DNA from: a virus
Virus genome (UHGV): UHGV-0269933
DNA: 13,616 bases
Strand: one strand, 5' to 3'
The position numbers were made by a program, and so were the translations under genes. Below are positions 1-13,616 of this stretch, piece by piece; within the stretch, counting starts at the first letter, position 1, and each line of letters begins with the position of its first letter. The notes under the pieces were generated by a model. That model had not been told where the DNA came from. It did not search any database and saw nothing but the letters and a program-made list of their open reading frames with translations.

Positions 1-25
1 TACTAATCAGTTAAGTGTTTGTTTT

Positions 26-63
26 AAAAGGCGCTACTCGGCATGGGGAAGCGCCTTTTTTAT
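26..63 (+). repeat. attL-type direct repeat (38 bp), also a Rho-independent terminator hairpin
   Basis: aaaaggcgctactcggcatggggaagcgccttttttat is identical to 11239..11276. GGCGCT...AGCGCC stem followed by a T-run. Confidence 0.8.
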
Positions 64-68
64 TAAAT

Positions 69-90
69 TGACTGCACCACTGACTGCACC
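69..90 (+). repeat. Tandem arm-type repeats TGACTGCACC(AC)TGACTGCACC, putative integrase arm sites (P' arm)
   Basis: Tandem 12-bp period repeat immediately inside the left att core. Near-identical tandem repeat at 11045..11068 in the same orientation. Confidence 0.55.
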
Positions 91-115
91 GATACACGAA
101 CTATAGCGAACGGCG

Positions 116-145
116 TTGAACGAAATCACCAACTAATCGTAATAT
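116..145 (+). promoter_or_regulatory. Sigma70-like promoter for the Abi-like gene (TTGAAC-N18-TAATAT)
   Basis: -35 TTGAAC at 116..121 and -10 TAATAT at 140..145. SD AAGGGG at 164..169 upstream of ATG 180. Confidence 0.4.
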
Positions 146-170
146 GATAAACCTCTACATATGAAGGGGT

Positions 171-944
171 ATGGTGTACATGAAGTCTATTCTTGATGAA
201 CTTAGTACTGATATTGAGCGCGCTGAAAGTCTACAGTCCCAGCTGATTAGCGTAGCTACTGGCGGACCTGCGTTACCATATGAATATCAGGAGCTAAGAC
301 GTTTTTTTGTTGAATCACCACTATATAGCAACATTATTCCCTCTTTCGTAAAAACAAACCGCAACACCGACCAATTTTGGCAATTTATTAAATACAAATT
401 TGGTACATATGCTGAAAGAAGGCAGTACATTTGGGATGAATTCCAAGAATTGATGGACTATCTGGAGGGTAAAAACAAAGCACCCGCAGATGAGGACATC
501 TCTGATGTATTAAGACGGTTTGATGAGGATGGTGTTCACACCGTGTGGATGAAAGCACTAGAACGGCGCCACACAGACCCGGATGGGGCGATAACCTCTG
601 CAAGAACACTTCTAGAAACGGTTTGCAAGCACATTCTTGATGATATGGATGTCCCCTATAATAATAAAAATATAGAAATGTCAGAGCTTTATAAAATACT
701 ATCAAAAGAACTTAACTTATCTGCCGACCAGCATACTGAAAGTATTTTCAAACAAATTCTTGGTGGTTGTTCAGCCGTTGTAAATGGGCTAGGTACTCTT
801 CGTAATAAACTTGGTGACGCACATGGAAAGAATCGCTCATCAGTTAAACCATCACCAAGGCATGCAGAACTCGCTGTAAATTTATCAGGCTCAATGGCTC
901 TTTTTCTAATTAGCTCATGGTTAAACCTTAAAGATAAAAATTAA
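171..944 (+). CDS. Abortive-infection family protein (Abi_C-like C-terminal domain); likely true start ATG at 180
   Basis: 257-aa ORF. C-terminal LGTLRNKLGDAHGK motif after a TLLETVCKHIL helix resembles the Abi_C family signature (from memory). AT-rich relative to flanks, own promoter and SD. Confidence 0.55.
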   Translation: MVYMKSILDELSTDIERAESLQSQLISVATGGPALPYEYQELRRFFVESPLYSNIIPSFVKTNRNTDQFWQFIKYKFGTYAERRQYIWDEFQELMDYLEGKNKAPADEDISDVLRRFDEDGVHTVWMKALERRHTDPDGAITSARTLLETVCKHILDDMDVPYNNKNIEMSELYKILSKELNLSADQHTESIFKQILGGCSAVVNGLGTLRNKLGDAHGKNRSSVKPSPRHAELAVNLSGSMALFLISSWLNLKDKN

Positions 945-969
945 TGAACTATGGACGTGATATGACCAA

Positions 970-1227
970 TTAGTTAATCATTATGTTCATCGGTTTAAGC
1001 TGTTTCTGGCTGTTCACCAGCCAATCTTGCATGTATTTGCACCAGGTACTGAACATCGCCTCATCAGTGCCTGGATAGGTGTACAGATACCCCATAAGGA
1101 CTTTATCGGTAATCTCATCCTCTTGATCCCAACCAATGATGAATTGACGAAATAGGCCGTATGATTTAGCCGGATCCGTATTCCTCCACGTTTCCACTAC
1201 TACATCGAATGCCGGAACCCTGAATGT
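970..1227 (-). pseudogene. 3' remnant of an unknown gene truncated by the IS66-family element
   Basis: Track ORF 970..1293; its N-terminal 22 aa are translation of the IS terminal repeat. Only the C-terminal ~85 aa (RVPAFDVVVETWRNTDPAKSYGLFRQF...) lie outside the IS. No start codon or SD. Confidence 0.35.
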
Positions 1228-2001
1228 GTAAGCGTGCAGTGAGAACCGTATTGACGAAGTGAAGCTGGTCAGGCAGGCAGAGTAACCCGCCACGGGAGCA
1301 GAGCACCCACCCGGTTCACAGGCCAGTCGGCGATGACATCAAGTACATAATGCAGATAGCGTTCCGGATCCACGCCGTTTAATTTGCACGTCCCGATAAG
1401 ACTGTACAGTGACGCACCGCGCTCACCACCATGATCCGAGCCGAAGAACAGCCAGTTTTTTCTCCCCAGACTGACCCGTCGTAGGGCGTTTTCGGCAATG
1501 TTATTATCCACCTCCACCCAGCCATCTTCTGCATAGCGGATCAGCGCCGGCCACTGGTTCAGCGCATACCCGAACGCCTTCGCCAGTTCTGAGTGCCTTG
1601 AGAGGGTTTTCTGTTTCTCCCGCAGCCACCCCTCCAGTGACGCCAGCAGCGGCAGCACTTTTTGGTGCCGGACTGCCTGCCGTTCCTCTGCTCTTTTACC
1701 TCTGATCTCCGACTCGATGGCATACAGCTCGCCGATCCGTTTCAGCGCCTCTTGCGAATGTCTGTCCTCTGGCTTTACTGGTGTTCATGTATTTTTCAAA
1801 GCCGGGGAGTGTAACTGACAGCGCTCGAAATACCTCTCGCGGTGTGCTAATCACTCGCTGGTGCTCCCGGCCAAATAATCTGATCAGAGGACCACTCAGT
1901 TTGATAGTTGTCATGACTTCTGCACATGGATTCATAGCCGCCTCAGTTAATTTTGGAGAAAGGAAACGGTTAGGCTTTTTTTAGCTCAAAATAGCGCTTA
2001 C
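1228..2001 (-). mobile_element. Internally deleted IS66-family insertion sequence remnant (~0.77 kb)
   Basis: GTAAGCG-type terminal sequences at both ends (1228 on +, 2001 on -). Contains the C-terminal ~170 aa of an IS66 TnpC-like transposase. No matching 8-bp target-site duplication (ctgaatgt vs catttcct). Confidence 0.7.
1269..1783 (-). pseudogene. IS66-family transposase (TnpC) C-terminal fragment
   Basis: Translation ...ALKRIGELYAIESEIRG...LAKAFGYALNQWPALIRYAEDGWVEVDNNIAENALRRVSLGRKNWLFFGSDHGGERGASLYSLIGTCKLNGVDPERYL...LLPW matches the conserved TnpC C-terminus. In-frame stop lies upstream at ~1786; N-terminal two-thirds absent. Confidence 0.8.
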
Positions 2002-2161
2002 CATTTCCTTTCTTTTTAGATGGTGTTTTCATTAAAAACATATAGTTACATCGAAGAAGAACAGAAACGGCAAATCGCAGAAAATTTTCATAAATAGCAA
2101 GAATCTGCGAGGTCGCCGCCCCGTAGCAGGCCGAATTGCCCGAAAGGACCCGCGCCGAAAT

Positions 2162-2268
2162 CGCTCAAACTTCAATCGGCCGAGTTTTCGAGGCGTTAAA
2201 GAGTAGATATGGGAATATCACATATGTAAAAACCAGCCGCGCTCAAACTTCAATCGGCCGAGTTTTCG
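2162..2268. repeat. Pair of perfect 29-bp direct repeats (2162..2190, 2240..2268) with embedded 9-bp-stem hairpin in second copy
   Basis: cgctcaaacttcaatcggccgagttttcg occurs twice, 78 bp apart. Second copy extends into aatcggccg-agtttt-cggccgatt inverted repeat. Confidence 0.6.
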
Positions 2269-2307
2269 GCCGATTACCAGGTCCGCCGGGTCATTCGGGC
2301 CTGTCGG

Positions 2308-2694
2308 TCAGCCAATCAACGTGCTTTTCCCGCCGCGAGCCTGCTGGCGCACACGCTCGGCCTTAAGGCAAAGAGATGCTTCAGGCTTAGCAGGTACAGG
2401 AACATGGCAGGTTTCAGAGGTCCGGGGAATGTTATTGATCCATTCAATAACTTCACTCAGATACCACGCCTTGCGCCCCTCAGTGACCTGGACGCGTACT
2501 GGAAACTCACCTCGCGCTTCGAGATTCAGCAATGTACGGCGGCTCAGCGTGGTGAGTTCTATGACCTGATTCATATCAACCAGGCGCTCACTGACGTTCA
2601 TTTTGTCTGCCATCTCCAGCAGTTCACCCACCACTGGATCCGGATAGAGAGCATTGGCGGTGGCCATCAGGCTGTTATTTTTATCTTGCATCAT
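2308..2694 (-). CDS. AlpA/Vis-family HTH DNA-binding protein (second copy, with N- and C-terminal extensions)
   Basis: Core MNQVIELTTLSRRTLLNLEARGEFPVRVQVTEGRKAWYLSEVIEWIN fits the phage AlpA/excisionase-type HTH pattern. Start ATGATG at 2694/2691 with AAGGAG SD; the 144-aa track ORF start is an unsupported upstream extension. Confidence 0.55.
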   Translation of the reverse strand: MMQDKNNSLMATANALYPDPVVGELLEMADKMNVSERLVDMNQVIELTTLSRRTLLNLEARGEFPVRVQVTEGRKAWYLSEVIEWINNIPRTSETCHVPVPAKPEASLCLKAERVRQQARGGKSTLIG

Positions 2695-2701
2695 AATCTC
2701 C

Positions 2702-3043
2702 TTACACCAGTGCCAGTGGCTGAACAGAAATACCAGAGCCAACGAACGCTGCTACTTTTGCAGAAAGCGTGGTTACATCATCAGGCCAGTTAAGGGCATC
2801 AACATTCAGCACGCCAGCTTTGTAGACCTGAGCATGTGTCTGGCTTGCGGTATCAACAGCAAAGCAAGATACATAGACAGCCTGCCCGGCATGCGCCCCA
2901 TCCCAGACCACCAAAGCCCCATTGGTAGCATCCTGCATAAGTGGAGTCAGCGCGGGAATAACGCCCTTTGCTCCAGCGAAGATACCCAGAGTTGTCACCA
3001 GCGCTTCAGTACCGGCCGCCAGTTCAGTGTAATGCGTCGTCAT
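2702..3043 (-). CDS. Phage head decoration protein, lambda gpD-like
   Basis: 113 aa; ALTPLMQDATNGALVVWDG...VYKAG...AAFVGSGISV aligns with lambda gpD (AMTPLMLDTSSRKLVAWDG...FYKSG...TAFAGTAISIV). AAGGAG SD; translationally coupled to upstream capsid gene. Confidence 0.75.
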   Translation of the reverse strand: MTTHYTELAAGTEALVTTLGIFAGAKGVIPALTPLMQDATNGALVVWDGAHAGQAVYVSCFAVDTASQTHAQVYKAGVLNVDALNWPDDVTTLSAKVAAFVGSGISVQPLALV

Positions 3044-3052
3044 GATTACTCC

Positions 3053-4093
3053 TTAGGCCACGCGAACGGTGACAAAACGGTTGATACGGGCCGGGATAGG
3101 CTGCGGTGCGGAGTGGGTCTGAACGTACTCAATAGCTGGGTCGCCAGGAACAATGTAGTTCTTTGGCGCCAGCTCAGCTTTGGTAATACCCATACGGATG
3201 AGCTCTGGATCCTGAATTCCGCCGTAGGCCACAATGCCCTGCAGGGCGGTGTTTCCCAGCACCATCAAATCAGGATCGAGGAAGTGCTTTTCGGTGCCGT
3301 CTTCGTCGGTATAGCGACCGCTATAAACCACAATAGCCACATCGCCCATATAGCCTTTAAAGCTCACTGAATCGCCCAGGTCTTTAAGTGCTGTTTCAAG
3401 CTGTGCGTTGGAGCCGCGGCGCGTGTCGAGTACATCTTTAATCGCTTTGAAAGAACGATATTTTTTCCAGACGTTCCCGCCCATAATGATGATATTGGTT
3501 ACGCCTTCACTCAGCTCTGAATAGGTTTCAATATCGTCATTTGGATCAAACGTCGTTTTATCTTTACCTGACCAGGCAGCGCCACCAGCCTGAGTGATTA
3601 TATTCTGGGATTTGATATTCCAGTCCAGCTCATAACGCTCGATCCCTTCCCCCTCAATAATATTTTTCCCGGTAGTTACAGCCTGAACAGCCAGCCATTC
3701 AATACGCGCACGAATAGCAATAGACTGTTTGAGGATTGACTGTTTTACCTTGATATTGCGGGTATCAAGCGTGCTGTATTGATCAGGAGTAACACCAGCA
3801 GGACGAACAGCCAGTTTGTTAGGGTCAATGTTGCTCTTTGGTTTCATGTAGCCAGGACGGATAGACTTGGACTCATATCCCTCATCACGCGCCACCTTAC
3901 TACCCACCATAGGCGAACAGAACGCCGCGATTGGAATATTTGGGTCGTCGATAGTGTCCAGGATGATATCGCGCGTTTCAAAAGTAACTGCGCGGGTAAA
4001 GAATAAATCAGTGAACAGGGTTTTTAGTTGCTTCTGAATATCCTCAGCGCTAACAACCCGAACCAGCGCCGCAGGTGAATATAAATCTGGCAT
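3053..4093 (-). CDS. Major capsid protein, lambda gpE-like
   Basis: 346 aa, full-length collinear similarity to lambda gpE (341 aa): PGYMKPK..., ITQAGGAAWSGKDKTTFDPNDDIETY..., FRSFKAIKDVLDTRRGSNAQLETALKDLG...YMGDVAIVVYSG...MVLGNT...YGGIQD...GDPA... SD GAGG upstream of ATG. Confidence 0.9.
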   Translation of the reverse strand: MPDLYSPAALVRVVSAEDIQKQLKTLFTDLFFTRAVTFETRDIILDTIDDPNIPIAAFCSPMVGSKVARDEGYESKSIRPGYMKPKSNIDPNKLAVRPAGVTPDQYSTLDTRNIKVKQSILKQSIAIRARIEWLAVQAVTTGKNIIEGEGIERYELDWNIKSQNIITQAGGAAWSGKDKTTFDPNDDIETYSELSEGVTNIIIMGGNVWKKYRSFKAIKDVLDTRRGSNAQLETALKDLGDSVSFKGYMGDVAIVVYSGRYTDEDGTEKHFLDPDLMVLGNTALQGIVAYGGIQDPELIRMGITKAELAPKNYIVPGDPAIEYVQTHSAPQPIPARINRFVTVRVA

Positions 4094-4301
4094 ATATTAC
4101 CTCAGTAAAATAAATAGAGCGTTCATCACAAAAATAATGTTAACACTGACAAACACAGAATGATTGAATGCAATGATGTGCAATAGAGTGCAATAATGTA
4201 TAAAGTTAATTCACGGTGATATGGCCCGCTAAATATCTGTTAATGTCCTCACTGTTATTTCCTCCAAATAACATCGTTCGTTAAAAATCCATGTTTTCCC
4301 A

Positions 4302-4331
4302 AGCGGGTCTGGTTGCAGCCCGCTTTTTTTT
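4302..4331 (+). terminator. Rho-independent terminator on + strand (hairpin + T8) with no annotated + strand gene upstream
   Basis: agcgggtctggttgcagcccgct stem-loop followed by tttttttt. Lies in the leader region upstream of the capsid gene. Confidence 0.45.
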
Positions 4332-4366
4332 CGTCTTTCGCAAAATTATGGATCGGCAAAATGAGT

Positions 4367-4646
4367 GGTGAAAATCACCCTACCCACAGCTTTAAAATTA
4401 AAAAATATCCTTTTAAGTGTTCACCCGTTCACCTTTGCGAATTTCTTAATTAAATTCATGTAGTTATAGGGTGAATACTACTCTTTCAGGTATTCACTAG
4501 TGTTCACCCTACCCTTCACCCTTTAGGGCAAAAAACAATCAAAAGGTGAACAGGTGAATACTTGGTGAATACTTAATAAATAAGTGTCCACCCCTTAACA
4601 CTCTGTTATTAATAGAATTTTAAACAGGGTGAATACTGGTGAACAC
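4367..4646. repeat. Iteron cluster of P4 ori/crr type (TGTTCACC / GTATTCACC), ~12 copies in both orientations
   Basis: TGTTCACC at 4418, 4426, 4501; GGTGAACA/GGTGAATAC at 4470, 4545, 4553, 4564, 4628, 4638; variants at 4490, 4513, 4585; GGTGAAAATCACC palindrome at 4367. Matches the P4 type I iteron motif bound by alpha (recalled). Confidence 0.7.
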
Positions 4647-4659
4647 TTTATCTATAACT

Positions 4660-5361
4660 TTACTCTACCCCTTCATTCTCAGTAGTGATTGCACATGATG
4701 GCATCCAGTCGCCAGAATCATCATGCAGGGTTACGTTAGAGCGTATGCCATGTTTGGTTTTCCGCTTCTGGTATTCCTTCCCATACTCAACCATTGCGCC
4801 AGGCATATCTGTACCGAACCGCATCAGTGAGACAGGCTTACTCAGGCCATTGGCTCTCATGTATGCCAGATAGGCGTGATACAGGTACTTGCGCGGGCTG
4901 AATGGCACTATCTCGGCATTACCGATAAACATCCCGTCACACACTACCGACGCCATCAGGTAGCCGCAGAAGTCCACCAGCGAATCACCTTCACGCTTGA
5001 TCGCCAGAGCCTCCTCTGATTTCTGCTGCTCATACAATAACCGTCTGGCTTCGTCCTGGTCTGCAAAACGTGTAAGCAGATGGCGGATAACTACAGCCAG
5101 TTCCCCTTCTATTTTCTCTGCCAGCATCGAGTCTCGCTCGTTTTCTGGTACAACCTCCGAGAAATTGAAAATAACCCGGCGCCGCGAAATCCCCCCGCTA
5201 CGGTCGCTGAATGTCATAGCATTGTTGTTTACCGCCAGCACCACCGCCGGAATACGGGTTGAATATGGTGCTTTATGTTTAGGATCGATAGACACCTTGT
5301 CACCACCAGTTATGGCCTTAATACCTGCACCATCGCCAGCGTACCGGGTCATATCAGGCAT
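4660..5361 (-). CDS. P4 alpha-type primase/helicase C-terminal (iteron-binding) domain homolog, stand-alone/truncated
   Basis: 233 aa beginning near the SF3-helicase arginine-finger region (AVVLAVNNNAMTFSDRSGGISRRRVIFNF). No Walker A/B or primase domain. Located immediately upstream of the TGTTCACC iterons, as the alpha 3' end is in P4. Confidence 0.55.
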   Translation of the reverse strand: MPDMTRYAGDGAGIKAITGGDKVSIDPKHKAPYSTRIPAVVLAVNNNAMTFSDRSGGISRRRVIFNFSEVVPENERDSMLAEKIEGELAVVIRHLLTRFADQDEARRLLYEQQKSEEALAIKREGDSLVDFCGYLMASVVCDGMFIGNAEIVPFSPRKYLYHAYLAYMRANGLSKPVSLMRFGTDMPGAMVEYGKEYQKRKTKHGIRSNVTLHDDSGDWMPSCAITTENEGVE

Positions 5362-5427
5362 AATGATCGTAATGTTCCTTTATTTCATGAATCGTAATAG
5401 GCATAAATTCTCCTTGTTTGTCTAACC

Positions 5428-5620
5428 TGCCGCATTTAGTGCCGCGTTTAGCAATGCCGCACTTAGCGCCGCACCAGTTTTCTCAAAAAATTACGCAAAC
5501 CCAGTAATGACGTGGGTTTCAGTGAAATGCCGCACTTAGCGCGTGTATACAGGGACTAAGTGCGGCATTTGGTCATAAAACATACTAAATGCCGCACATG
5601 CCGCACTTACCGCCGCATTT
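5428..5620. repeat. Cluster of >=5 copies of ATGCCGCACTTAGCGC-like repeats including a 15-bp perfect inverted repeat
   Basis: Copies at ~5428, 5455, 5527, 5554 (inverted), 5588-5620. AAATGCCGCACTTAG-N16-CTAAGTGCGGCATTT at 5526..5571. Hairpin aaaccca/tgggttt at 5497..5519. Confidence 0.6.
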
Positions 5621-6983
5621 ACTCGACTGTTACCGGGTAAAGGTTCTCACCCTCGATGCGAATAATTTGCTCACTCTCCAGCTTGTCCAGCCAGCGCGGG
5701 AATGACTTTCTCACTTTGTCTGAGCCCAGCGTTGCACGCAGATCGTCTTTAATGACGGAGATAGTGCATGGCTCCCCCTTAGCTGTTCGGCTGCGAACTG
5801 CCTGCCATAGTGCATGATGGTTATCGCTAAGACGGGATACATGGGCCAGTTCAGGCTCAACCTCTTTAGCCTCTCTCGGCTGATCGTGCACAACCAGAGA
5901 GCAAACAAGCTCGCCATCTTCATCGGTGTAAAGCTCTGCCGTTCTCAGGTCATACGCTTTACGCTCTGGCTCCTCCGCGTCTTTCATCTTGGTACAGGTC
6001 AGAATAAGCGCTTTTCCATCCCCTTCACGCTTAACGTTAAATTCAGTATCAAGCGCAGCGCGGAAAGCACTGGAACCGCGAGCGCCTTTCCCTTCATCTT
6101 TGCCGGAGTGGTGAACTACCAGCACCGTTGCACCCGTTTTCTGTTTGATAACGTCACACCCTTCAATAAATGCCCCCATATCACGAGCATCGTTCTCGTC
6201 GTTACCGCCAAAACAACGGGCCAGCGTATCGATCACCACCATGCGAACCGGCACACCACATTCGGCTTCAATCTGCCTGGCAGCCAGAAGAACTTCTGTA
6301 ACCTCTGACTCACGCACCGGGAACACCGGACGATTGACCAGCCAGAGGTTGTCTGCCTGTATGCCATGCACCTGTTCCCATGCCCGTATACGCCGGGGAA
6401 CACCTACACCACCCTCGCCAACCACATACAGCACCGCGCCGGGAGTGACCTTCTTCCCCGCCCATGGCAGACCAGCAGCGATATGACAGGCCCACGACAC
6501 GGCAAGAAAACTCTTATACGAACCGCTGGGGCCGTAAATGCTGCACAGTGATTGCGCTGGCAGAAAGTGTTTAAGGATATAGTCCTGACGGATATCAAAG
6601 CCCTCAGAACCGCGAGAGAGAGGCAGCTTTGTCCTGAACTTTGCACCAGCATCAGGGAATACGCGGTGAATGCGCTGCACGTCAGACAGCATGGCATTCA
6701 TTTCCCCTTCGCCTATCTCTTCCACCAGCACAGAACGCCGCGCGGTAATCATATGTTTGCGGTCGGTATCGAGATACCCGGCATCACAAAGCTCCTCATA
6801 CGGCATTGCTGCTATCTGGTTGAGGCGAGCCACCAGCTTTCCGTAACGGGTAGTGGGGTCCTTATGCTGGTGGAGAGCTTTATCCAAATCGCTGCGACTG
6901 TACTGCTTGCCATGCGCCCACAGATACGAACAGGTGAACAAGGCATCCGATACGGTTTCTACAGCTGTCAGTTGTACCGTCAT
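5619..6983 (-). CDS. RepA-like replicative helicase / AAA_25 (RecA-fold) ATPase with N- and C-terminal accessory domains
   Basis: 454 aa; Walker A GPSGSYKS, Walker B-like VVIDTLARCF, HHSGKDEGKGARGSSA motif typical of RSF1010 RepA/DnaB-like helicases. ATGA overlap with upstream gene. Confidence 0.75.
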   Translation of the reverse strand: MTVQLTAVETVSDALFTCSYLWAHGKQYSRSDLDKALHQHKDPTTRYGKLVARLNQIAAMPYEELCDAGYLDTDRKHMITARRSVLVEEIGEGEMNAMLSDVQRIHRVFPDAGAKFRTKLPLSRGSEGFDIRQDYILKHFLPAQSLCSIYGPSGSYKSFLAVSWACHIAAGLPWAGKKVTPGAVLYVVGEGGVGVPRRIRAWEQVHGIQADNLWLVNRPVFPVRESEVTEVLLAARQIEAECGVPVRMVVIDTLARCFGGNDENDARDMGAFIEGCDVIKQKTGATVLVVHHSGKDEGKGARGSSAFRAALDTEFNVKREGDGKALILTCTKMKDAEEPERKAYDLRTAELYTDEDGELVCSLVVHDQPREAKEVEPELAHVSRLSDNHHALWQAVRSRTAKGEPCTISVIKDDLRATLGSDKVRKSFPRWLDKLESEQIIRIEGENLYPVTVE

Positions 6984-7348
6984 TTTGGAATGCCCCCGCT
7001 CATCTGGAATTTGCCGATCAGAGGATGGAACCAGTATGCAGAGCCATATTTGCGCTTAGCACTGCGCAGCACCAACCGTGCCGCTTCCCTGAACTTTTCA
7101 TCAGGTGCAACGAACCCGCCTGATTTCAGTTTAACCAGCATCACCCCTGTGTTTTTCGCCAGCTCCTCAGCCTTTTTGGTTGAGATACCGTATTCAGCAG
7201 CCAGTGTTGCTACTGGCGTCATACCCGGAGGGATTTCTCCGCCCTGACTATCGGTAAGTGATTTAACCTGAGCCTCAAGGCGCAAGACCTTCTCAACCAG
7301 CAGATCAACGCGGTTAGCCAGTTCGTTAAACTTCACATTGCTGATCAT
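6980..7348 (-). CDS. Hypothetical protein with N-terminal coiled coil and putative HTH
   Basis: 122 aa; TPVATLAAEYGISTKKAEELAK looks HTH-like. ATGA start/stop overlaps on both sides. Confidence 0.55.
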   Translation of the reverse strand: MISNVKFNELANRVDLLVEKVLRLEAQVKSLTDSQGGEIPPGMTPVATLAAEYGISTKKAEELAKNTGVMLVKLKSGGFVAPDEKFREAARLVLRSAKRKYGSAYWFHPLIGKFQMSGGIPK

Positions 7349-7572
7349 GGTCTTGCCTCCTGCGTTTCAGGGTCTGAAAAAGTAGAAATATCCAGTGAGT
7401 TTGCCAGTTCGTCAGAAAGGCGCTGAGCCAGGTGCGTTAAACTCATTACATGGATACGCTCCGCCTCCCCCTTGATAGTTGAAAGGTAAGCAGCACATGA
7501 CATGAGCGCAGCAACCTCTTGCGCCAGTAACAGCAAATCTTTTTTGCTGCGGTAGGTGTAAAAGTTATCCAT
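7345..7572 (-). CDS. Hypothetical small protein (75 aa)
   Basis: Start ATG at 7572 overlaps upstream stop (ATGGATAA). Track ORF 7345..7689 extends upstream without support. Confidence 0.5.
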   Translation of the reverse strand: MDNFYTYRSKKDLLLLAQEVAALMSCAAYLSTIKGEAERIHVMSLTHLAQRLSDELANSLDISTFSDPETQEARP

Positions 7573-7750
7573 TGAGCGCTCCCGTTTCATTCTGCTCCAC
7601 CATGCTTGCCGCAAGTTGATCCGATACTCGTCTGGCCAGACTGATAAGGTTTTCACGCTCAACCTGATCAACGTCGTACTCTTCGACAACCATCAACAAC
7701 GCAGCCAGTTCACAGGCTATTGACGCACTTTTATTGGTTAATTCACGCAT
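7565..7750 (-). CDS. Hypothetical small protein (61 aa)
   Basis: Start ATG at 7750 in ATGCGTGA overlap with upstream gene stop. Track ORF 7565..7912 is an upstream extension in another gene's sequence. Confidence 0.5.
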
Positions 7751-8012
7751 GGCGCACCTCCTGAATAGCTGCGCTATCGAACTCCCAGCCACGGCGGGTG
7801 GTGTAATCGAAAAACGCAACGCGACAAGGAGACTGGGCGCGGATTTTGGCAGCGAAAACCAAATCCCAGCCGGGGAATGCAGAGCGGGCTTTATCTTCCG
7901 TATCAGCATCAAAGCGGAGCACTACAGGTGTGCATTTTGGGGTGTGGTCTGGGGTTGCCAGGAATAACCATGTAAATTCCGGGCGAGTTTGGGTATGCTG
8001 TTGATCAGCCAT
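7743..8012 (-). CDS. Hypothetical protein (89 aa), first gene of replication operon
   Basis: Start ATG at 8012 with GGAG SD ([13 protein letters not shown]...). The 318-aa track ORF 7743..8699 upstream of this Met is low-complexity, Cys/Arg/Ser-rich non-coding translation. Confidence 0.55.
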
Positions 8013-8139
8013 AACTGTTACTCCGATTAACGGTTTGGTTAGACGCCCTGGTACTGCTCTAACAGTCCGGGGCGTTGCTTTTTGGTATGCACCTGCCATA
8101 CACTTGATTACCATTTCAAAGTAATCAGGTGTCAACCAA

Positions 8140-8319
8140 ATGTCAACCATAGAAATTAAAGCCAAAGGTAACAAGCAGATCGCATTACGCGTAGAACCAA
8201 ACCTAGAAGAAGGAATTAAACAGGCTCTGGCGCAAGATGGTGACGCTTCTGTATCAGCATGGATAAAGCGAATAATCCGCAAAGAGTTACAGCAGCGAGG
8301 CATTGAGCCGAAAAGCTGA
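8140..8319 (+). CDS. Small ribbon-helix-helix-like DNA-binding protein (59 aa), candidate island regulator/repressor; absent from ORF track
   Basis: ATG 8140 with AGGTG SD 9 nt upstream; stop TGA 8317..8319. KQIALRVEP strand plus two amphipathic helices fits Arc/MetJ/CopG topology. Divergent from the replication operon across a 127-bp region. Confidence 0.5.
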
Positions 8320-8499
8320 TACCCAAAATCTGGGTAACGGTCGAAACTACGGGAATTCTCCGGGGTATGCTGCATTGCAGTACACCCGGCACTCTGTTCC
8401 AGTTCTCCCCAGATTTGGGGAAATGGGGTATGCGCCAATGCCGTACACCCTAAACAGCCCAATTTCTGGGTAGTTTCACGTAACCGCGCCATTGACACA

Positions 8500-8519
8500 G
8501 TTCCTGTAATTACAGGAAC
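8500..8519. promoter_or_regulatory. 20-bp perfect palindrome GTTCCTGTAATTACAGGAAC adjacent to TTGACA; candidate operator
   Basis: Perfect dyad symmetry. TTGACA hexamer at 8492..8497 immediately upstream. Confidence 0.45.
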
Positions 8520-8588
8520 GCTCAGGCTTTGACCACCAGCATTAACCCTGGTATCCTGACTTTGCTTAATTTTTTGGTAGTGACATTG

Positions 8589-8616
8589 GCGGCCCGGCAT
8601 GGCCGCTTTTGTTTTA
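8589..8616 (+). terminator. Rho-independent terminator on + strand
   Basis: gcggcc-cggcat-ggccgc hairpin followed by ttttgtttta; ~270 nt downstream of the RHH gene stop. Confidence 0.55.
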
Positions 8617-8634
8617 TGTGACATTCCCCACCCC

Positions 8635-8844
8635 TCACGCTGCTTTGCTGCGGCTCTGCTGCCATGCTGTGACCTCAGAAAGAAGCCAACCAACGGCACG
8701 ACCTCCCAGCTTACGGCGGGCGGGAAAGCTCCCCTCTTTTTCCATCATGTATCGAGTGGTTCGACAAATACCGGTTAGCTGTCGGCACTCAGCCTCACGG
8801 ATAACTCTTTCTGCTGGCTGCTGGGATTGTTTAATATTGTTCAT
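8635..8844 (-). CDS. alpA: AlpA-family transcriptional regulator (prophage CP4-57-type)
   Basis: 69 aa from MNNIKQ; ...[43 protein letters not shown] is the AlpA HTH signature. The longer 81-aa reading would translate through a hairpin and has no SD. Confidence 0.75.
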
Positions 8845-8880
8845 AAAAAAATGCTCTCGTTCGCTAAGGTTCGAGAGCAT
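8845..8880 (-). terminator. Terminator-like hairpin with 9-bp perfect stem directly abutting the alpA start codon
   Basis: On the - strand, atgctctcg-aaccttagcgaa-cgagagcat followed by ttttttt then ATG of alpA. The 3' arm contains the only SD-like GAGAG. Confidence 0.45.
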
Positions 8881-8959
8881 TGTTATTCAACAAAATTATC
8901 ACCGCGACGGTGAGAAAAAAATTATATTCCTCTAAAGGAGTTACCCTTATTCAGTTATA

Positions 8960-9802
8960 TCAAGATAATTCTTTCCTGATTTTATCTAAAGAATCACTTC
9001 TTATGATTTTATCCAAGAAAGGTTTTACCGTTTGAGCTATGGCAAAGGACTCCTTTTCTCCATCCGGGAACAGGGATACTGCGAGTACGCCAAGAGATAT
9101 TTTGCTGTCGGTAGCGCTTTCCCATGACATCAAATCAATAAGTGGAATTATTCTGTAGTCAATTATTTTCCGTCTGACGCTCTCCCAGTCCCCTGAGACT
9201 GGCTTATCTGGTTCAGGTATTCCGAGTTCTTCGCGCCATTTTGGGAGGAGGTTCGTGAATGCTTCAATCAAAAGATCATCTCTGTTGTTTAAGTCAACAG
9301 TAATCATCACGTTTTCCACAACATCAGAAAGTAAGTTTACTGGCTCGCGCATGATAGCCCAAAACATACCGTTATCTGCTGTAAACAAATCCCCCACCAA
9401 ATCATCGTCAACTACTATTGGCTTTCCTTTCCAGTGACCTTTATCAGCATTGATTTTATTTAAAAATGCCAACTCAAATCTCATTAATGGTTTTATACCA
9501 TCGCCGTAACTTAATTTTAGCAAATCAGGCTGAGTCTTGTACTCGTATTCCTTTTGCTTTTCAAGAAACCATTCTTCTGCTTTGAGTTCCCCGAATGGAT
9601 CACCAAAATTATTGTTAAGCGGGTATTTAGCACCATATTGCAAACCATAGTCAGGGCAGTCTGTATTTTTTATTGCTAAATCATCGCATCGCCAATAGAG
9701 CTGACGAAACAAATCCTTATCAGACATATTTTCAAGGTCATCATATTTTTCCAAGCTGAATGACTTTGGTAAGTCTCTTTTACTGTTAATTTTTTTTGTC
9801 AT
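8960..9802 (-). CDS. Hypothetical protein (280 aa), AT-rich cargo gene translationally coupled to integrase; function unknown
   Basis: ATG overlaps the integrase stop codon (ATGA). Markedly lower GC than neighbours; acidic, Lys/Asp/Glu-rich; no motif recognised. Confidence 0.6.
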   Translation of the reverse strand: MTKKINSKRDLPKSFSLEKYDDLENMSDKDLFRQLYWRCDDLAIKNTDCPDYGLQYGAKYPLNNNFGDPFGELKAEEWFLEKQKEYEYKTQPDLLKLSYGDGIKPLMRFELAFLNKINADKGHWKGKPIVVDDDLVGDLFTADNGMFWAIMREPVNLLSDVVENVMITVDLNNRDDLLIEAFTNLLPKWREELGIPEPDKPVSGDWESVRRKIIDYRIIPLIDLMSWESATDSKISLGVLAVSLFPDGEKESFAIAQTVKPFLDKIIRSDSLDKIRKELS

Positions 9803-11022
9803 CTTGCGACCTCAAGAATAGTAACATTTGAGATATCAGAGGTAATAACCTCTAATCTCTGCATCCATTTATTCAGTGCATCCAGCTTTTCAGGTAAATA
9901 CTGACTGCGGTTATATACGGACATGACACCGCCCAGCGCATGGCCCAGAAGCTGCTCGACAACATGCGGAGCAATTCCCATGTTGTTCAGAGTCGTGGAA
10001 AACGTACGGCGTAGATCGTGAAGCGTCCACGGTTCAGAGTGGCCCAGACGCTTATACAACATCCTTCCCCACTGACTGACAGCTTCCGGTTTCTTTATCT
10101 CTCCAAGCAAAAGCCCTGTGCTTTGGTGCTGCTCTAAGAGCTGTTTGATAAATGGGCGGATATCTACGGGAATAGGACGTAGTATTTTCTCACCACCTTT
10201 GCTGTGCTCTTTAGGTACAGTCCAAACCCAATCACTTAGATCCCATTCGGTTACGCGAGACAATCTCAACTCCTGAGTTCGGCACCCAAACACTACTAGC
10301 AGACGTAGCAGCGAGGAGTAGTAGGGCTTGAATTTCAAGCCTGAACACTCCCGCCATATATCAGCCAGTTCTTGCCGGGTATGTTCCCTGTCCCGTTTAT
10401 TCTGTTTACGTCCAACATCATCAATGGTCAGATCGTCCAGGACATTACTCACCGCGTACCGATGAACACGGCAGAACTTGAGGGCTTGCTTACACATTTG
10501 CAGAAGATAGCCAGCAGCTACAGGAGCCTCATCTCTCACCCTGCTGAAACACTCCAGCCAGTGGCGGGTTTCGCACATAGAGAGGGGAAACGCCCCAATA
10601 TATGGGTAGATATGCTTATTGAGCTGTTCTATATGCTTTTCTACATTAGCCCGTTTATGAGATGCATATTCCCTTATCCAGTATTCAAGTGCCTCTTTTA
10701 CAGTTACCGGCTTAAGTGTTTCCTGTGTGGTGACAGTTAACTGGTGTTTCGGGTTCTTCCCCTCAGCAAGCCAGGCACGACATTGATCTCGCTTTGCCCT
10801 CGCGGCCTTAAGTGAAAGATCGGGATAGTTACCTAACTTCAAACGCTGAGGGGCAGTACTGCGTCCACCAATACGGTATGTAAAATACCAGGTCATTATG
10901 CCTATCTTTGACACCTTTACGCTCAGGCCATCACCATCAGCGTAAAAGCTATCACCGGGGCTTTCCCTCCCAACCATCTTGCGGAGCGATGTATCGCTTA
11001 ACTTGTTCGTTCCACCAGCCAT
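9799..11022 (-). CDS. int: Site-specific tyrosine recombinase, P4-type integrase (Arm-binding N-domain + catalytic domain)
   Basis: 407 aa. N-terminal ...DGDGLSVKVSKIGIMTWYFTYRIGG...LKLGNYPDLSLKAARAKRD arm-binding pattern. C-terminal HDLRRTFST...LGHALGGVMSVYNRSQY catalytic motifs, similar to P4 Int. GAGG SD. Confidence 0.9.
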   Translation of the reverse strand: MAGGTNKLSDTSLRKMVGRESPGDSFYADGDGLSVKVSKIGIMTWYFTYRIGGRSTAPQRLKLGNYPDLSLKAARAKRDQCRAWLAEGKNPKHQLTVTTQETLKPVTVKEALEYWIREYASHKRANVEKHIEQLNKHIYPYIGAFPLSMCETRHWLECFSRVRDEAPVAAGYLLQMCKQALKFCRVHRYAVSNVLDDLTIDDVGRKQNKRDREHTRQELADIWRECSGLKFKPYYSSLLRLLVVFGCRTQELRLSRVTEWDLSDWVWTVPKEHSKGGEKILRPIPVDIRPFIKQLLEQHQSTGLLLGEIKKPEAVSQWGRMLYKRLGHSEPWTLHDLRRTFSTTLNNMGIAPHVVEQLLGHALGGVMSVYNRSQYLPEKLDALNKWMQRLEVITSDISNVTILEVAR

Positions 11023-11044
11023 AAAAACCTCAGTTCATTTTTGG

Positions 11045-11068
11045 CACTGACTACACCACTGACTACAC
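11045..11068 (+). repeat. Tandem arm-type repeats CACTGACTACAC x2 (P arm)
   Basis: Perfect tandem 12-mer between the integrase start and the att core; homologous to the repeats at 69..90. Confidence 0.55.
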
Positions 11069-11195
11069 ATCTCAATGTTACTCTATGAACAGCAATGAAC
11101 AAAGGCAAACCAGAAAAACGATATTATCGTTATATATCATAATAATACACGAACAACAGCAAACATAACCGAACGGTAAAAAACGTAGGTTTTGA

Positions 11196-11213
11196 AAATA
11201 CGGCATGAACTAA
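11196..11213 (+). other. fis: Last six codons of fis (K-Y-G-M-N-stop) at the island/chromosome junction
   Basis: aaa tac ggc atg aac taa encodes the conserved Fis C-terminus. Stop lies 85 bp upstream of the yhdJ ATG. Sequence upstream is integrase leader, not fis. Confidence 0.5.
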
Positions 11214-11238
11214 TTCAGGTTAGCTAAATGCTTGATTA

Positions 11239-11276
11239 AAAAGGCGCTACTCGGCATGGGGAAGCGCCTTTTTTAT
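11239..11276 (+). terminator. attR-type direct repeat, the fis Rho-independent terminator
   Basis: Identical to 26..63. GC-rich hairpin followed by a T6 run, upstream of yhdJ. Confidence 0.8.
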
Positions 11277-11298
11277 AGGTGTCACAAAGGGAGTGACC

Positions 11299-12183
11299 AT
11301 GAGAACAGGATGTGAACCGACCCGGTTTGGTAATGAAGCTAAGACCATTATTCACGGTGATGCCCTTGCCGAACTTAAAAAGCTACCTACTGAAAGCGTC
11401 GATCTGATCTTTGCCGACCCACCGTATAACATCGGTAAAAATTTTGATGGTCTGATCGAAGCCTGGAAAGAAGATCTGTTTATCGACTGGCTGTTTGAAG
11501 TGATTGCAGAGTGCCACCGCGTTCTGAAAAAGCAGGGCAGCATGTACATTATGAACAGTACGGAAAACATGCCCTTTATCGATCTCCAGTGCCGCAAGCT
11601 TTTTACCATCAAAAGTCGCATCGTCTGGTCATATGACAGTTCTGGAGTACAGGCGAAAAAACACTACGGCTCCATGTACGAACCCATCCTGATGATGGTG
11701 AAAGACGCAAAGAACTACACATTCAACGGTGATGCTATTCTGGTAGAAGCCAAAACCGGATCGCAGCGCGCGTTGATCGATTATCGCAAAAATCCTCCAC
11801 AGCCATACAATCATCAAAAAGTACCGGGTAACGTCTGGAATTTTCCGCGCGTGCGTTATTTAATGGATGAATATGAGAACCACCCGACGCAAAAACCGGA
11901 AGCCTTACTGAAACGCATTATTCTCGCCTCTTCCAACCCAGGCGATATCGTTCTCGACCCGTTTGCCGGTAGCTTTACTACCGGTGCCGTAGCCATCGCC
12001 AGCGGACGAAAATTCATTGGTATTGAGATCAACAGCGAGTACATCAAAATGGGGCTTCGACGGCTGGATGTCGCGTCGCATTACTCCGCGGAAGAACTGG
12101 CGAAAGTGAAAAAAAGAAAGACGGGCAACCGGTCAAAACGATGCCGGGTTAGCGAAGTTGACCCCGATCTCATTGCAAAGTAA
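11299..12183 (+). CDS. yhdJ: DNA adenine (N6) methyltransferase YhdJ
   Basis: 294 aa from MRTGCEPTRFGNEAK...; DPPY motif (FADPPYNIG); C-terminal SAM-binding motif DPFAGSFTTG. SD AAAGGGAG. Track start at GTG 11293 is less likely. Confidence 0.9.
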   Translation: MRTGCEPTRFGNEAKTIIHGDALAELKKLPTESVDLIFADPPYNIGKNFDGLIEAWKEDLFIDWLFEVIAECHRVLKKQGSMYIMNSTENMPFIDLQCRKLFTIKSRIVWSYDSSGVQAKKHYGSMYEPILMMVKDAKNYTFNGDAILVEAKTGSQRALIDYRKNPPQPYNHQKVPGNVWNFPRVRYLMDEYENHPTQKPEALLKRIILASSNPGDIVLDPFAGSFTTGAVAIASGRKFIGIEINSEYIKMGLRRLDVASHYSAEELAKVKKRKTGNRSKRCRVSEVDPDLIAK

Positions 12184-12266
12184 AGGAAGTGTAAGCCTGG
12201 TTTTCAGATTATTCATTTCGTGTATATTTCCTGCCAGACTTGGTTAAACATGCACAGGCTCAGGTA

Positions 12267-12446
12267 ATGATTCGCAAGTATTGGTGGCTCGTCGTTTTCG
12301 CTGTCTTCGTTTTTCTGTTTGATACTTTACTGATGCAGTGGATTGAACTGCTGGCAACAGAAACAGACAAATGCCGTAATATGAACTCAGTTAATCCACT
12401 AAAACTGGTTAACTGTGACGAACTGAATTTTCAGGACAGAATGTGA
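12267..12446 (+). CDS. yhdU: Small membrane protein YhdU
   Basis: 59 aa from MIRKYWWLVVFAVFVFLF... with one hydrophobic helix; conserved position between yhdJ and envR. Confidence 0.75.
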   Translation: MIRKYWWLVVFAVFVFLFDTLLMQWIELLATETDKCRNMNSVNPLKLVNCDELNFQDRM

Positions 12447-12448
12447 AT

Positions 12449-13111
12449 TTACATGACACTTAATTCATTCGTTTGATGAATTAATTTCGTTATGTTTTCA
12501 TCTGGCATGAACATTCTTAATACGTTATCGACCAGCGCGGGTGCTTGTTTATAAAGATCATAACCCGCCATATTCATTAACCAGTTTTGAACAATTCCGC
12601 TGAAGGCACCATCAATAATAATCATCACAACATCTAAATCGAGGTTATTTGCTACACAACCTTGTTGCTGACACGCCTGCAATACTTCGCGGAGAGTCTG
12701 CGGATTAAAGCCCATCTTTTCGCGTATCACTCCCTCGGCCAGCATCTCATCATTAAATTCACATTTGTGATATAAGATTTTCAGCAACGCCTGCTGGCGG
12801 GGAATTTTGGCAATATATTGCAAGCCGACAATCAATTTTTCACGCAATTGTTGAAACGGGTCATGCTCTAATCCAGCCGTCAAGTGTTCCTGGATTAACT
12901 CCCGCAATGAAGGCTGTTGCAACCACATCTCATTAAACAGTTGAGTCTTGTTTTCGAAGTGCCAGTAGATAGCGCCACGCGTAACGTTAGCAGCGTCGGC
13001 AATGTCGTTGAGCGTCGTCTTGCTTACGCCATGCTGCGCAAACTGGGCGATGGCAGTTTCAATCAGTTCTTGCCGGGTCTTCAGAGCTTCGGCTTTGGTT
13101 CTTTTTGCCAT
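12449..13111 (-). CDS. envR: TetR-family repressor EnvR (AcrS) of acrEF
   Basis: 220 aa, N-terminal TetR HTH (TRQELIETAIAQFAQHGVSKTTLNDIADAANVTRGAIYWHF). Divergent from acrE. Confidence 0.9.
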   Translation of the reverse strand: MAKRTKAEALKTRQELIETAIAQFAQHGVSKTTLNDIADAANVTRGAIYWHFENKTQLFNEMWLQQPSLRELIQEHLTAGLEHDPFQQLREKLIVGLQYIAKIPRQQALLKILYHKCEFNDEMLAEGVIREKMGFNPQTLREVLQACQQQGCVANNLDLDVVMIIIDGAFSGIVQNWLMNMAGYDLYKQAPALVDNVLRMFMPDENITKLIHQTNELSVM

Positions 13112-13509
13112 GATTAATTATTCAGGAAATAAATATATTCGACACAGGGTGAGAAAATAGCGAAGGTTAATCTATCATCTAATGTGTATTTATACGAGAG
13201 GGTAACATTAAGTTGCTATAAATCGTCAAATAAATAATATATATTATTTACCTAAAATACATTCGCCACATGAATATATATTTCAATTTACGAGGTTTTA
13301 ATTCTACCTCTTTCAACCCGCGTCAAAATAAAACAGTAGAATATTAATCTTTTTTTGTGTTTATGTGCCTTGAGACGCCAGTATTCATAACTATTCCTTA
13401 CATCGACGAATGATAATTTGTAGGATAGCAAACTGTATTTTTCTTTCTGCGAGTTAACGCGTTGCCTTTCTGGGTAAATAACGCGCTTTTGGTTTTTTGA
13501 GGAATAGTA

Positions 13510-13616
13510 ATGACGAAACATGCCAGGTTTTTCCTCCTGCCCTCCTTTATTCTGATCTCCGCGGCTTTAATCGCCGGTTGTAACGATAAGGGAGAAGAGA
13601 AAGCTCACGTCGGTGA
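13510..13616 (+). CDS. acrE: Multidrug efflux periplasmic adaptor lipoprotein AcrE, 5' partial (runs off window)
   Basis: MTKHARFFLLPSFILISAALIAGCNDKGEEKAHVG: lipoprotein signal peptide with lipobox LIAGC. SD GAGGA. Confidence 0.85.
   Translation, partial: MTKHARFFLLPSFILISAALIAGCNDKGEEKAHVG

Follow-up and report, generated by a model that had tools for sequence, protein, structure and literature searches.

A phage satellite at the 3′ end of Escherichia coli fis predicted to supply the stop codon, spacer and terminator of its target gene

Organization of the locus

The window, that is the whole stretch of 13,616 nucleotides analyzed here (UHGV virus genome UHGV-0269933), contains a phage satellite of ∼11.2 kb bounded by two junctions, with E. 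coli chromosome beyond the right one (Table 1). The flank at positions 11277 to 13616 is 99.7% identical over 2340 bp to many E. coli genomes, in which it is annotated as yhdJ, yhdU, acrS and acrE. Next to this flank the satellite encodes a tyrosine integrase, whose DNA is 77–89% identical to the integrases adjoining yhdJ in 24 complete E. coli genomes. The opposite, outer end carries an AbiJ-like abortive-infection gene, which is found at the same position in E. coli SCU-125. None of 5,426 complete E. coli genomes contains the exact window (best match of the integrase region, 88.8%), and no record spans its left end. Two contigs with exact matches to proteins encoded in the window, L147 (window positions 34 to 11268, starting inside the left terminator repeat) and L146 (positions 1558 to 13616), both stop short of fis.

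Table 1. Features of the window and the evidence for each; island or host origin at the junctions is as predicted from comparison with related loci.
Feature	Position	Strand	Evidence
Putative island-borne spacer of the surrogate fis 3′ UTR (tactaatcagttaagtgtttgtttt)	1..25	+	Diverged homologue of the native spacer
Putative island-borne fis rho-independent terminator, left repeat copy	26..63	+	Folding: hairpin 26–59, T-run
Doubled arm-type motif TGACTGCACcacTGACTGCAC, outer (P′) arm; presumed integrase arm-domain site	69..89	+	Motif match
AbiJ-like abortive-infection gene, outer-end cargo	171..944	+	Pfam Abi_C, 7.8e-22; PADLOC AbiJ, 1e-20
IS66-family transposase fragment	970..1658	-	Pfam DDE_Tnp_IS66, 5e-26
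Tail-assembly-I fragment, 79 aa remaining	1696..1935		
Second, weaker AlpA/excisionase-like ORF	2308..2742		33.6 bits
D-like decoration gene	2702..3043		HDPD match
Lambda-E-like capsid gene	3053..4093		Phage_cap_E match
Primase fragment, C-terminal, 233 aa	4660..5361		Pox_D5
RepA-type replicative helicase, satellite replication zone	5619..6983	-	Pfam AAA_25, 6e-43; PHROG helicase/primase families
Protein with repressor-like C-terminus	7743..8699		
AlpA-family regulator/excisionase, PICI signature	8635..8880	-	Pfam Phage_AlpA, 8.6e-16; 58 bits against a cut-off of 21
DUF6387 protein	8960..9802		
Tyrosine integrase, 407 aa	9799..11022	-	Pfam Arm-DNA-bind_3, Phage_int_M, Phage_integrase
Doubled arm-type motif TGACTACACcacTGACTACAC, integrase-proximal (P) arm	11048..11068	+	Motif match
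Right copy of the 17-bp identity block AAAATACGGCATGAACT	11195..11211	+	attL/attR/attB alignment
Displaced fis tail: five codons (KYGMN) and native TAA	11196..11213	+	Read directly; equals the empty site from 11199
Native E. coli fis spacer	11214..11238	+	Identical to island-free attB of FDAARGOS_1277
Native fis terminator, right repeat copy	11239..11276	+	Equals FDAARGOS_1277 attB; hairpin −19.7 kcal/mol
yhdJ, chromosomal gene normally after fis	11299..12183	+	E. coli flank identity

Sequence comparison reveals a switch of similarity near position 5361 (within 4390 to 5425). Rightwards, the helicase, regulation and integration parts are ∼95.7% identical to the fis island of HZ13; on the left, the primase fragment is only ∼81% identical to the primases of other fis islands. 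This switch indicates that the island is a mosaic in which two different replication modules have left remnants. At positions 5425 to 5617, separating the helicase gene from the primase fragment, a ∼16–20 nt repeat (ATGCCGCACTTAGCGC) is clustered in at least five direct copies and further inverted ones, a candidate origin that looks like the iteron type.

The IS66 fragment marks a rearrangement inside the island, with a breakpoint at ∼1227/1228: three related contigs (L002, L003 and L005) lose identity to the window at 1227, while a fourth, L010, continues to 1354. Relative to L002, the fragment replaces a 128-aa ORF and a 197-aa gene similar to tail-assembly-I. In the late zone (positions 2308 to 4093), similarity of the DNA to the lambda and N15 capsid genes is only ∼69%, and the capsid and decoration genes follow each other on the transcribed strand in the order E, then D, the reverse of lambda. 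A perfect 29-nt direct repeat, CGCTCAAACTTCAATCGGCCGAGTTTTCG, occurs at 2162 to 2190 and 2240 to 2268 (78 nt apart) and adjoins the second AlpA-like ORF. Given this decay (the IS66 fragment, the truncated primase and the truncated tail-assembly gene), the element may no longer be a functional satellite.

Structure of the two junctions

The right junction reads TGA AAA TAC GGC ATG AAC TAA (positions 11193 to 11213). The displaced KYGMN-TAA within it belongs to no gene, because an in-frame TGA precedes it at 11193 to 11195. A stretch of 85 bp (11214 to 11298) then separates KYGMN-TAA from the yhdJ start codon at 11299. The same spacing is found at the island-free site of strain FDAARGOS_1277 (L143), with the end of fis at 637 and the start of yhdJ at 723, and from position 11199 rightwards the window matches this empty site base for base. 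To the left of 11195 lies the integrase-proximal arm, the upstream region of the minus-strand integrase.

At the left junction, the spacer in positions 1 to 25 is unlike the native E. coli fis spacer, and it is followed by the first copy of a perfect 38-bp direct repeat (AAAAGGCGCTACTCGGCATGGGGAAGCGCCTTTTTTAT; positions 26 to 63, identical to 11239 to 11276) that extends to 55 nt at 91% identity. A perfect match of this length is far beyond chance. Both copies fold into a hairpin followed by a run of T, with free energies of −18.8 (left) and −19.7 kcal/mol (right) and z-scores of −3.6 and −4.6. A consensus terminator scan, which allows loops of no more than 8 nt, for that reason returned no match at either junction; both hairpins are evident when the sequences are folded directly. 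Rfam gave no match anywhere in the whole window, so the repeat is not explained by a known RNA gene. A preliminary description of this DNA had drawn attention to four of these features, namely the perfect terminator repeat, the KYGMN-stop set 85 bp before yhdJ, the integrase leader just upstream of it and a degenerate copy of the native spacer, beginning tac-taa, at the left; all four are confirmed here.

The sequence on the far side of position 1 was recovered from contigs selected for the exact coding sequence of the window's first gene, the AbiJ-like gene, of which four extend upstream (L002, L003, L005 and L010). All four read AAA AAA TAC GGC ATG AAC TGA and then tactaatcag, so that ...TACGGCATGAAC TGA, and with it the codons GGCATGAAC, directly abuts the sequence with which the window opens. 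The metagenome contig L010 is 100% identical to window positions 1 to 1354, including the window-specific IS66 breakpoint, and since it runs past 1227, where the other versions diverge, it represents the same island variant as the window. It is the only exact-variant contig across the left junction and provides 129 nt of upstream sequence. Its fis stretch (about 127–129 nt, covering only the end of the gene) is 100% E. coli and ends KKYGMN-TGA, directly abutting position 1 with neither intervening DNA nor an integrase between them. By identity with this contig, the window is judged to start at the first base after the fis stop codon, and the upstream bases of its source genome are taken to be those of L010.

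Location of the strand exchange

Alignment of attL (L010 and the window), attR (the window) and attB (L143) leaves only one block common to all three, the 17-bp AAAATACGGCATGAACT. Leftwards of the stop codon attL equals attB, and from 11199 rightwards attR equals attB. The left copy of AAAATACGGCATGAACT ends 2 nt before window position 1, as seen in L010. The TACGGCATGAACT(A/G)A block has its right copy at 11199 to 11213 and its left copy just outside the window, where it is visible in L010, L002, L003 and L005. This conserved exchange block takes in the GGCATGAAC codons. Placed by these comparisons, the strand exchange is assigned to AAAATACGGCATGAACT and not to the terminator, in keeping with the earlier proposal that the island was inserted at the fis 3′ end by a crossover within the last fis codons.

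Related islands display the same pattern. In SCU-125, attL has a terminator (GGCGCTCTTCGGCATGGAGAAGCGCC) unlike the native one of attR, and the identity between attL and attR is limited to AAAATACGGCATGAACT. In 21AR0133, which has another integrase type and other arm repeats, attL and attR are identical only in TACGGCATGAACT. As the left-side terminator also differs from the native one in 33-6, in addition to 21AR0133 and SCU-125, the terminator copy evidently travels with the island. The 38-bp repeat of the window thus consists of orthologous copies of a conserved terminator, one belonging to the island and one to the host, which are identical by coincidence. More generally, recombination at island junctions need not have taken place in the longest perfect repeat that they share; the true core here would be 13–17 bp within the last fis codons.

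The arms flanking this core carry a motif of the kind bound by integrase arm domains. Only four copies of the half-site TGACTRCAC are present in the window (positions 69, 81, 11048 and 11060), always in one orientation, and they form the doubled TGACTRCACnnnTGACTRCAC at ∼88 bp and ∼147 bp from the core on the two arms. This spacing is as expected for integrase arm-type sites, indicating that both junctions belong to one element. The same motif is present on both arms of related islands. A doubled motif has been reported for HE-PICIs and was said to be absent from the attPs of fis PICIs (PMC10111431); from the sequences compared here, fis PICIs appear to have analogous doubled arm motifs of different sequence, one per integrase type. 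Islands of the 21AR0133 type have a doubled arm motif of their own, GTTTATACA, in two copies (L012, positions 18056 to 18080 and 34264 to 34285).

Origin of the fis tail at the left junction

The fis gene of E. coli ends in TAA-ttcaggttagc in ∼5,400 of 5,426 complete genomes, and a tail of the form TGA-tac... is found in only 7. All four of the TGA-tail genomes inspected have island DNA beside fis: 21AR0133, 33-6 (an IS1-truncated remnant), FDAARGOS_1283 and SCU-125, the last with the same integrase family and the same fis-Abi ... int-yhdJ architecture as the window. Across Enterobacterales, by comparison, fis natively ends in TGA-tactaatcag; TACGGCATGAACTGATAC with tactaRtcag and a terminator behind it is the native form in Citrobacter, Enterobacter, Klebsiella, Kluyvera, Serratia, Yersinia, Pectobacterium and others. 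Window positions 1 to 63 are 1 nt from the native fis tail of C. portucalensis, C. pasteurii and C. werkmanii, and likewise from the Citrobacter freundii-complex version.

The left end of the island is found next to more than one host allele. At 99.3–100% identity over 1.2 kb, it adjoins a Citrobacter allele of fis in three contigs (L002, L003 and L005), whose flanks are up to 99.9% C. braakii, and an E. coli allele in L010. L002 has a host flank 99.9% identical to C. braakii, yet its tail is 3 nt off the native C. braakii tail. The presence of the same TGA tail beside Citrobacter and E. coli alleles of fis implies that the tail travels with the island. On these comparisons, we interpret it as a replacement sequence of Citrobacter type on the outer (P′) arm.

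A first competing explanation places the crossover in, or at the end of, the shared terminator; the left spacer would then be the host's and the E. coli-like spacer at the right would be island-borne. The 38-bp terminator is indeed the longest perfect identity between the junctions, and islands of the HZ13 type bear the E. coli-type spacer on both sides, where 83 bp are identical. This explanation is nevertheless highly improbable: the host flank is E. coli at 99.7%, and in that species TAA-ttcagg is native (∼5,400 of 5,426 genomes) and the TGA type comes with island DNA (4 of 4 inspected genomes). The same tail and island also lie beside fis alleles of both genera, the two terminators differ in SCU-125 and 21AR0133, which excludes a crossover there, and the published core is TACGGCATGAACT(A/G)A (PMC10111431). 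The left spacer was accordingly rejected as the host's native one on the E. coli tail counts and its co-travel with the island, and the 38-bp repeat was rejected as the att core on the differing terminators of SCU-125 and 21AR0133.

Replacement of the fis tail by exchange in AAAATACGGCATGAACT would assign the parts of the two junctions as follows. The resident fis reading frame lies at the left. Its sequence is native as far as the crossover, and the stop codon, spacer and terminator that it now has would be island-derived. The native E. coli stop codon, spacer and terminator would be those of the right junction, where comparison with the island-free attB (L143) places them, behind a five-codon mimic borne by the island. 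Which junction carries the native fis end, left ambiguous in the preliminary description, is settled by this division; the suggestion made there that Fis itself might end differently is not upheld, as set out below.

The most probable account of the locus, in which we have high confidence, is that a fis PICI inserted itself by means of its own integrase, with exchange in AAAATACGGCATGAACT and an island-supplied TGA tail that leaves an intact Fis of 98 aa. The tyrosine integrase would have inserted the ∼11.2-kb satellite into the last four codons of E. coli fis, exchanging strands inside the 17-bp AAAATACGGCATGAACT that both island and chromosome possess. Since this position falls within the fis coding sequence, the outer arm would carry a replacement fis tail, made up of the rest of the TGA stop codon, a 25-nt spacer and a rho-independent terminator (window positions 1 to 63). 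The resident Fis would remain at 98 aa and end ...KKYGMN, the sequence upstream of the window in its source being expected to read ...AAAAAATACGGCATGAACTGA. The native TAA stop, spacer and terminator would have been pushed 11.2 kb away to the right junction, before yhdJ. If the element were excised within the core, the chromosome would regain its native E. coli site, ...AAAAAATACGGCATGAACTAATTCAGG... (attB), and the predicted attP is ...GGTTTTGAAAATACGGCATGAAC/TGATACTAATCAG...TTTTTTATTAAATTGACTGCACC.

A second competing explanation, also raised in the preliminary description, is that position 1 falls within a tandem array; in that case the left junction would be internal and attP-like, preceded by ...GGTTTTGAAAATACGGCATGAACTGA or the arm of another integrase, with fis farther away. 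From position 1 onward an internal junction would look the same. Junctions of this sort occur in L019, which joins two island types, and in L016 and L018, and a few fis tandems, a handful among ∼3,560 fis islands, are on record (PMC10111431). That rarity itself speaks against a tandem here, and in all four contigs that have this left end and reach upstream it is fis, not a P arm, that precedes it, L010 being the exact variant. For this element a tandem is therefore very unlikely, real as tandems are elsewhere (L019).

A search of IMG/VR with an attP pattern gave 9 matches, of which 6 are ordinary attR sites in hosts with a native TGA-type tail. Two IMG/VR contigs, L016 and L018, both partial loci, have the attP-type order of P arm, core, TGA tail, terminator and P′ arm; these junctions between islands of the same type could represent circles, concatemers or tandems. 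In L019 (IMG/VR 2713896732, ∼9895, minus strand), an integrase arm of the TGACTGCAC type is joined to an outer arm of the GTTTATACA type, a hybrid junction that points to two different fis satellites in tandem.

The end of Fis

With exchange in AAAATACGGCATGAACT, the protein encoded by fis is expected to be unchanged. The two Citrobacter carriers L002 and L003 encode, by translation, a 98-aa Fis ending KKYGMN, and a 98-aa Fis is likewise found in the complete E. coli genomes with a TGA-type tail (SCU-125, 21AR0133, FDAARGOS_1283 and 33-6). Annotated complete island genomes share the Fis accession WP_000462905.1 with island-free strains. Following KYGMN, the frame continues as stop, Y, stop (translations end N-stop-Y-stop). 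The TAC TAA at window positions 1 to 6 is in the fis frame, but it lies downstream of the TGA stop codon just outside the window. As judged from these carriers, Fis almost certainly stays full length, with the island providing a stop codon and terminator of its own. When a window is cut at a gene boundary, an intact gene can thus look truncated.

Truncation of Fis to ...KKY-stop without GMN was suggested earlier as a possibility. It has that in-frame TAC TAA in its favour, but is exceedingly improbable: TAC GGC ATG AAC TGA precedes TAC TAA in every carrier seen, L010 ends KKYGMN-TGA and all other carriers seen keep KYGMN, the four inspected complete genomes with a TGA-type tail encode the canonical 98-aa WP_000462905.1, and the conserved exchange block includes the GGCATGAAC codons.

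There is only a slim chance that the swapped stop codon (TAA to TGA, then in-frame TAC TAA) and 3′ UTR spacer measurably change fis expression. Such a change could act via mRNA stability, termination efficiency or low-level readthrough to a Fis longer by two amino acids. A satellite with this effect would adjust the abundance of a nucleoid protein which in its turn assists lambdoid site-specific recombination. The identical terminator hairpins, together with the fact that the TGA tail is normal in most Enterobacterales, argue for neutrality.

Relationship to described satellites

A survey by Tommasini, Mageeney and Williams (2023; PMC10111431) described 3565 fis GIs/PICIs in Enterobacterales and some other orders. 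It gives the fis identity block as TACGGCATGAACTAA, i.e. TACGGCATGAACT(A/G)A, which can extend into the fis terminator, and names yhdJ as the gene across the island in Salmonella. It also states as a general rule that attP carries replacement sequence when the crossover falls inside a gene, treats AlpA as a satellite signature and describes late zones as dynamic, with captured phage genes. In the account that it gives of Schoeniger et al. (2016), a Klebsiella fis PICI was excised within TACGGCATGAACTGATAC upon mitomycin induction, and replicated.

The element studied here matches this description. It is inserted at the fis terminus with the TACGGCATGAACT(A/G)A block (the left copy seen via L010), has its tyrosine integrase at the end that adjoins attR and yhdJ, and carries an AlpA gene. 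As expected of fis PICIs under a further criterion of the survey, the families that it names were matched by 0 of 20 scanned ORFs, which are nearly all of those of at least 100 aa between the junctions and include the small ORFs only in part. By gene content and site, the island is best classified as an already described fis PICI. It shares with this group the last fis codons as target, the block of TACGGCATGAACT followed by AA or GA, yhdJ across the island, the tyrosine integrase, AlpA, a replication zone, a variable late zone with captured head genes and a replacement end in attP. It differs in combining E. coli fis with a Citrobacter-type tail, so that the junctions are unlike between core and terminator, and in being a decayed mosaic, in which the primase and tail-assembly genes are truncated and an IS66 fragment and a second AlpA-like gene are present.

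A second point of reference is the group of capsid-forming PICIs (cf-PICIs), reportedly the subject of work by Alqurainy et al. in 2023. The closest complete-genome relatives of the window at the same site (HZ13, SCU-125, 21AR0133 and FDAARGOS_1283) carry HK97-type capsid, protease, portal, connector and HNH genes as well as small and large terminase. The window shares its integration, regulation and replication modules with HZ13 (95.7%). Of the packaging set, the scanned ORFs yielded only the Phage_cap_E and HDPD matches. Lacking the packaging module and holding only a lambda-E-like capsid gene and a D-like decoration gene, the element is not a cf-PICI by content.

The mode of integration also resembles that of tRNA-gene islands and icd-integrating prophages (PMC10111431), examples of integrative elements whose insertion replaces the 3′ end of the target gene. 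In all of them the crossover falls within the gene, a surrogate end in attP keeps the gene functional, and the displaced native fragment lies at the far junction (in the window, KYGMN-TAA and the UTR, 11196 to 11276). The window shows such a replaced 3′ end, with the intact reading frame of its own genome deduced from L010. It differs from these elements in that only four codons with the stop codon, UTR and terminator would be replaced: the protein is unchanged, and the differences are confined to the 3′ UTR spacer and the stop codon, TGA in place of TAA. The phenomenon has already been described (PMC10111431), and the case has little significance beyond correct annotation. In such strains, fis should be annotated as full length with a TGA stop, and KYGMN-TAA on the yhdJ side as a displaced att fragment.

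Variant fis ends in other genomes

Three further E. coli records show unusual arrangements at this site. In FDAARGOS_1283, attR (L144, positions 32837 to 32900) reads AAC TGA ttcaggttagctaaGtgTttgatt, a sequence unique among the 5,426 genomes. It is a patchwork, in which island-type bases (TGA, gtgttt) stand within an otherwise native E. coli tail, and suggests that attL and attR underwent patchy gene conversion, or that a heteroduplex was repaired where the exchange region ends. E. coli 33-6 (L142, positions 17057 to 20000) retains a remnant of a fis island, in which a TGA-type tail, the P′ arm and a single DUF6602 gene lead up to IS1. Deletion has removed the other parts of the island together with yhdJ through acrEF, and fis now precedes the transporter genes yhdW-Z. 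In ECDA1023 (L132, CP178308.1, labelled E. coli), a TGA-type tail at ∼1913 stands without an island, directly before an E. coli yhdJ leader, a case that speaks against the account preferred here. The 3′ coding end of its fis, however, is also non-E. coli and Kluyvera-like, and the site could have arisen by allelic replacement or be a deletion scar from recombination between two terminator copies.
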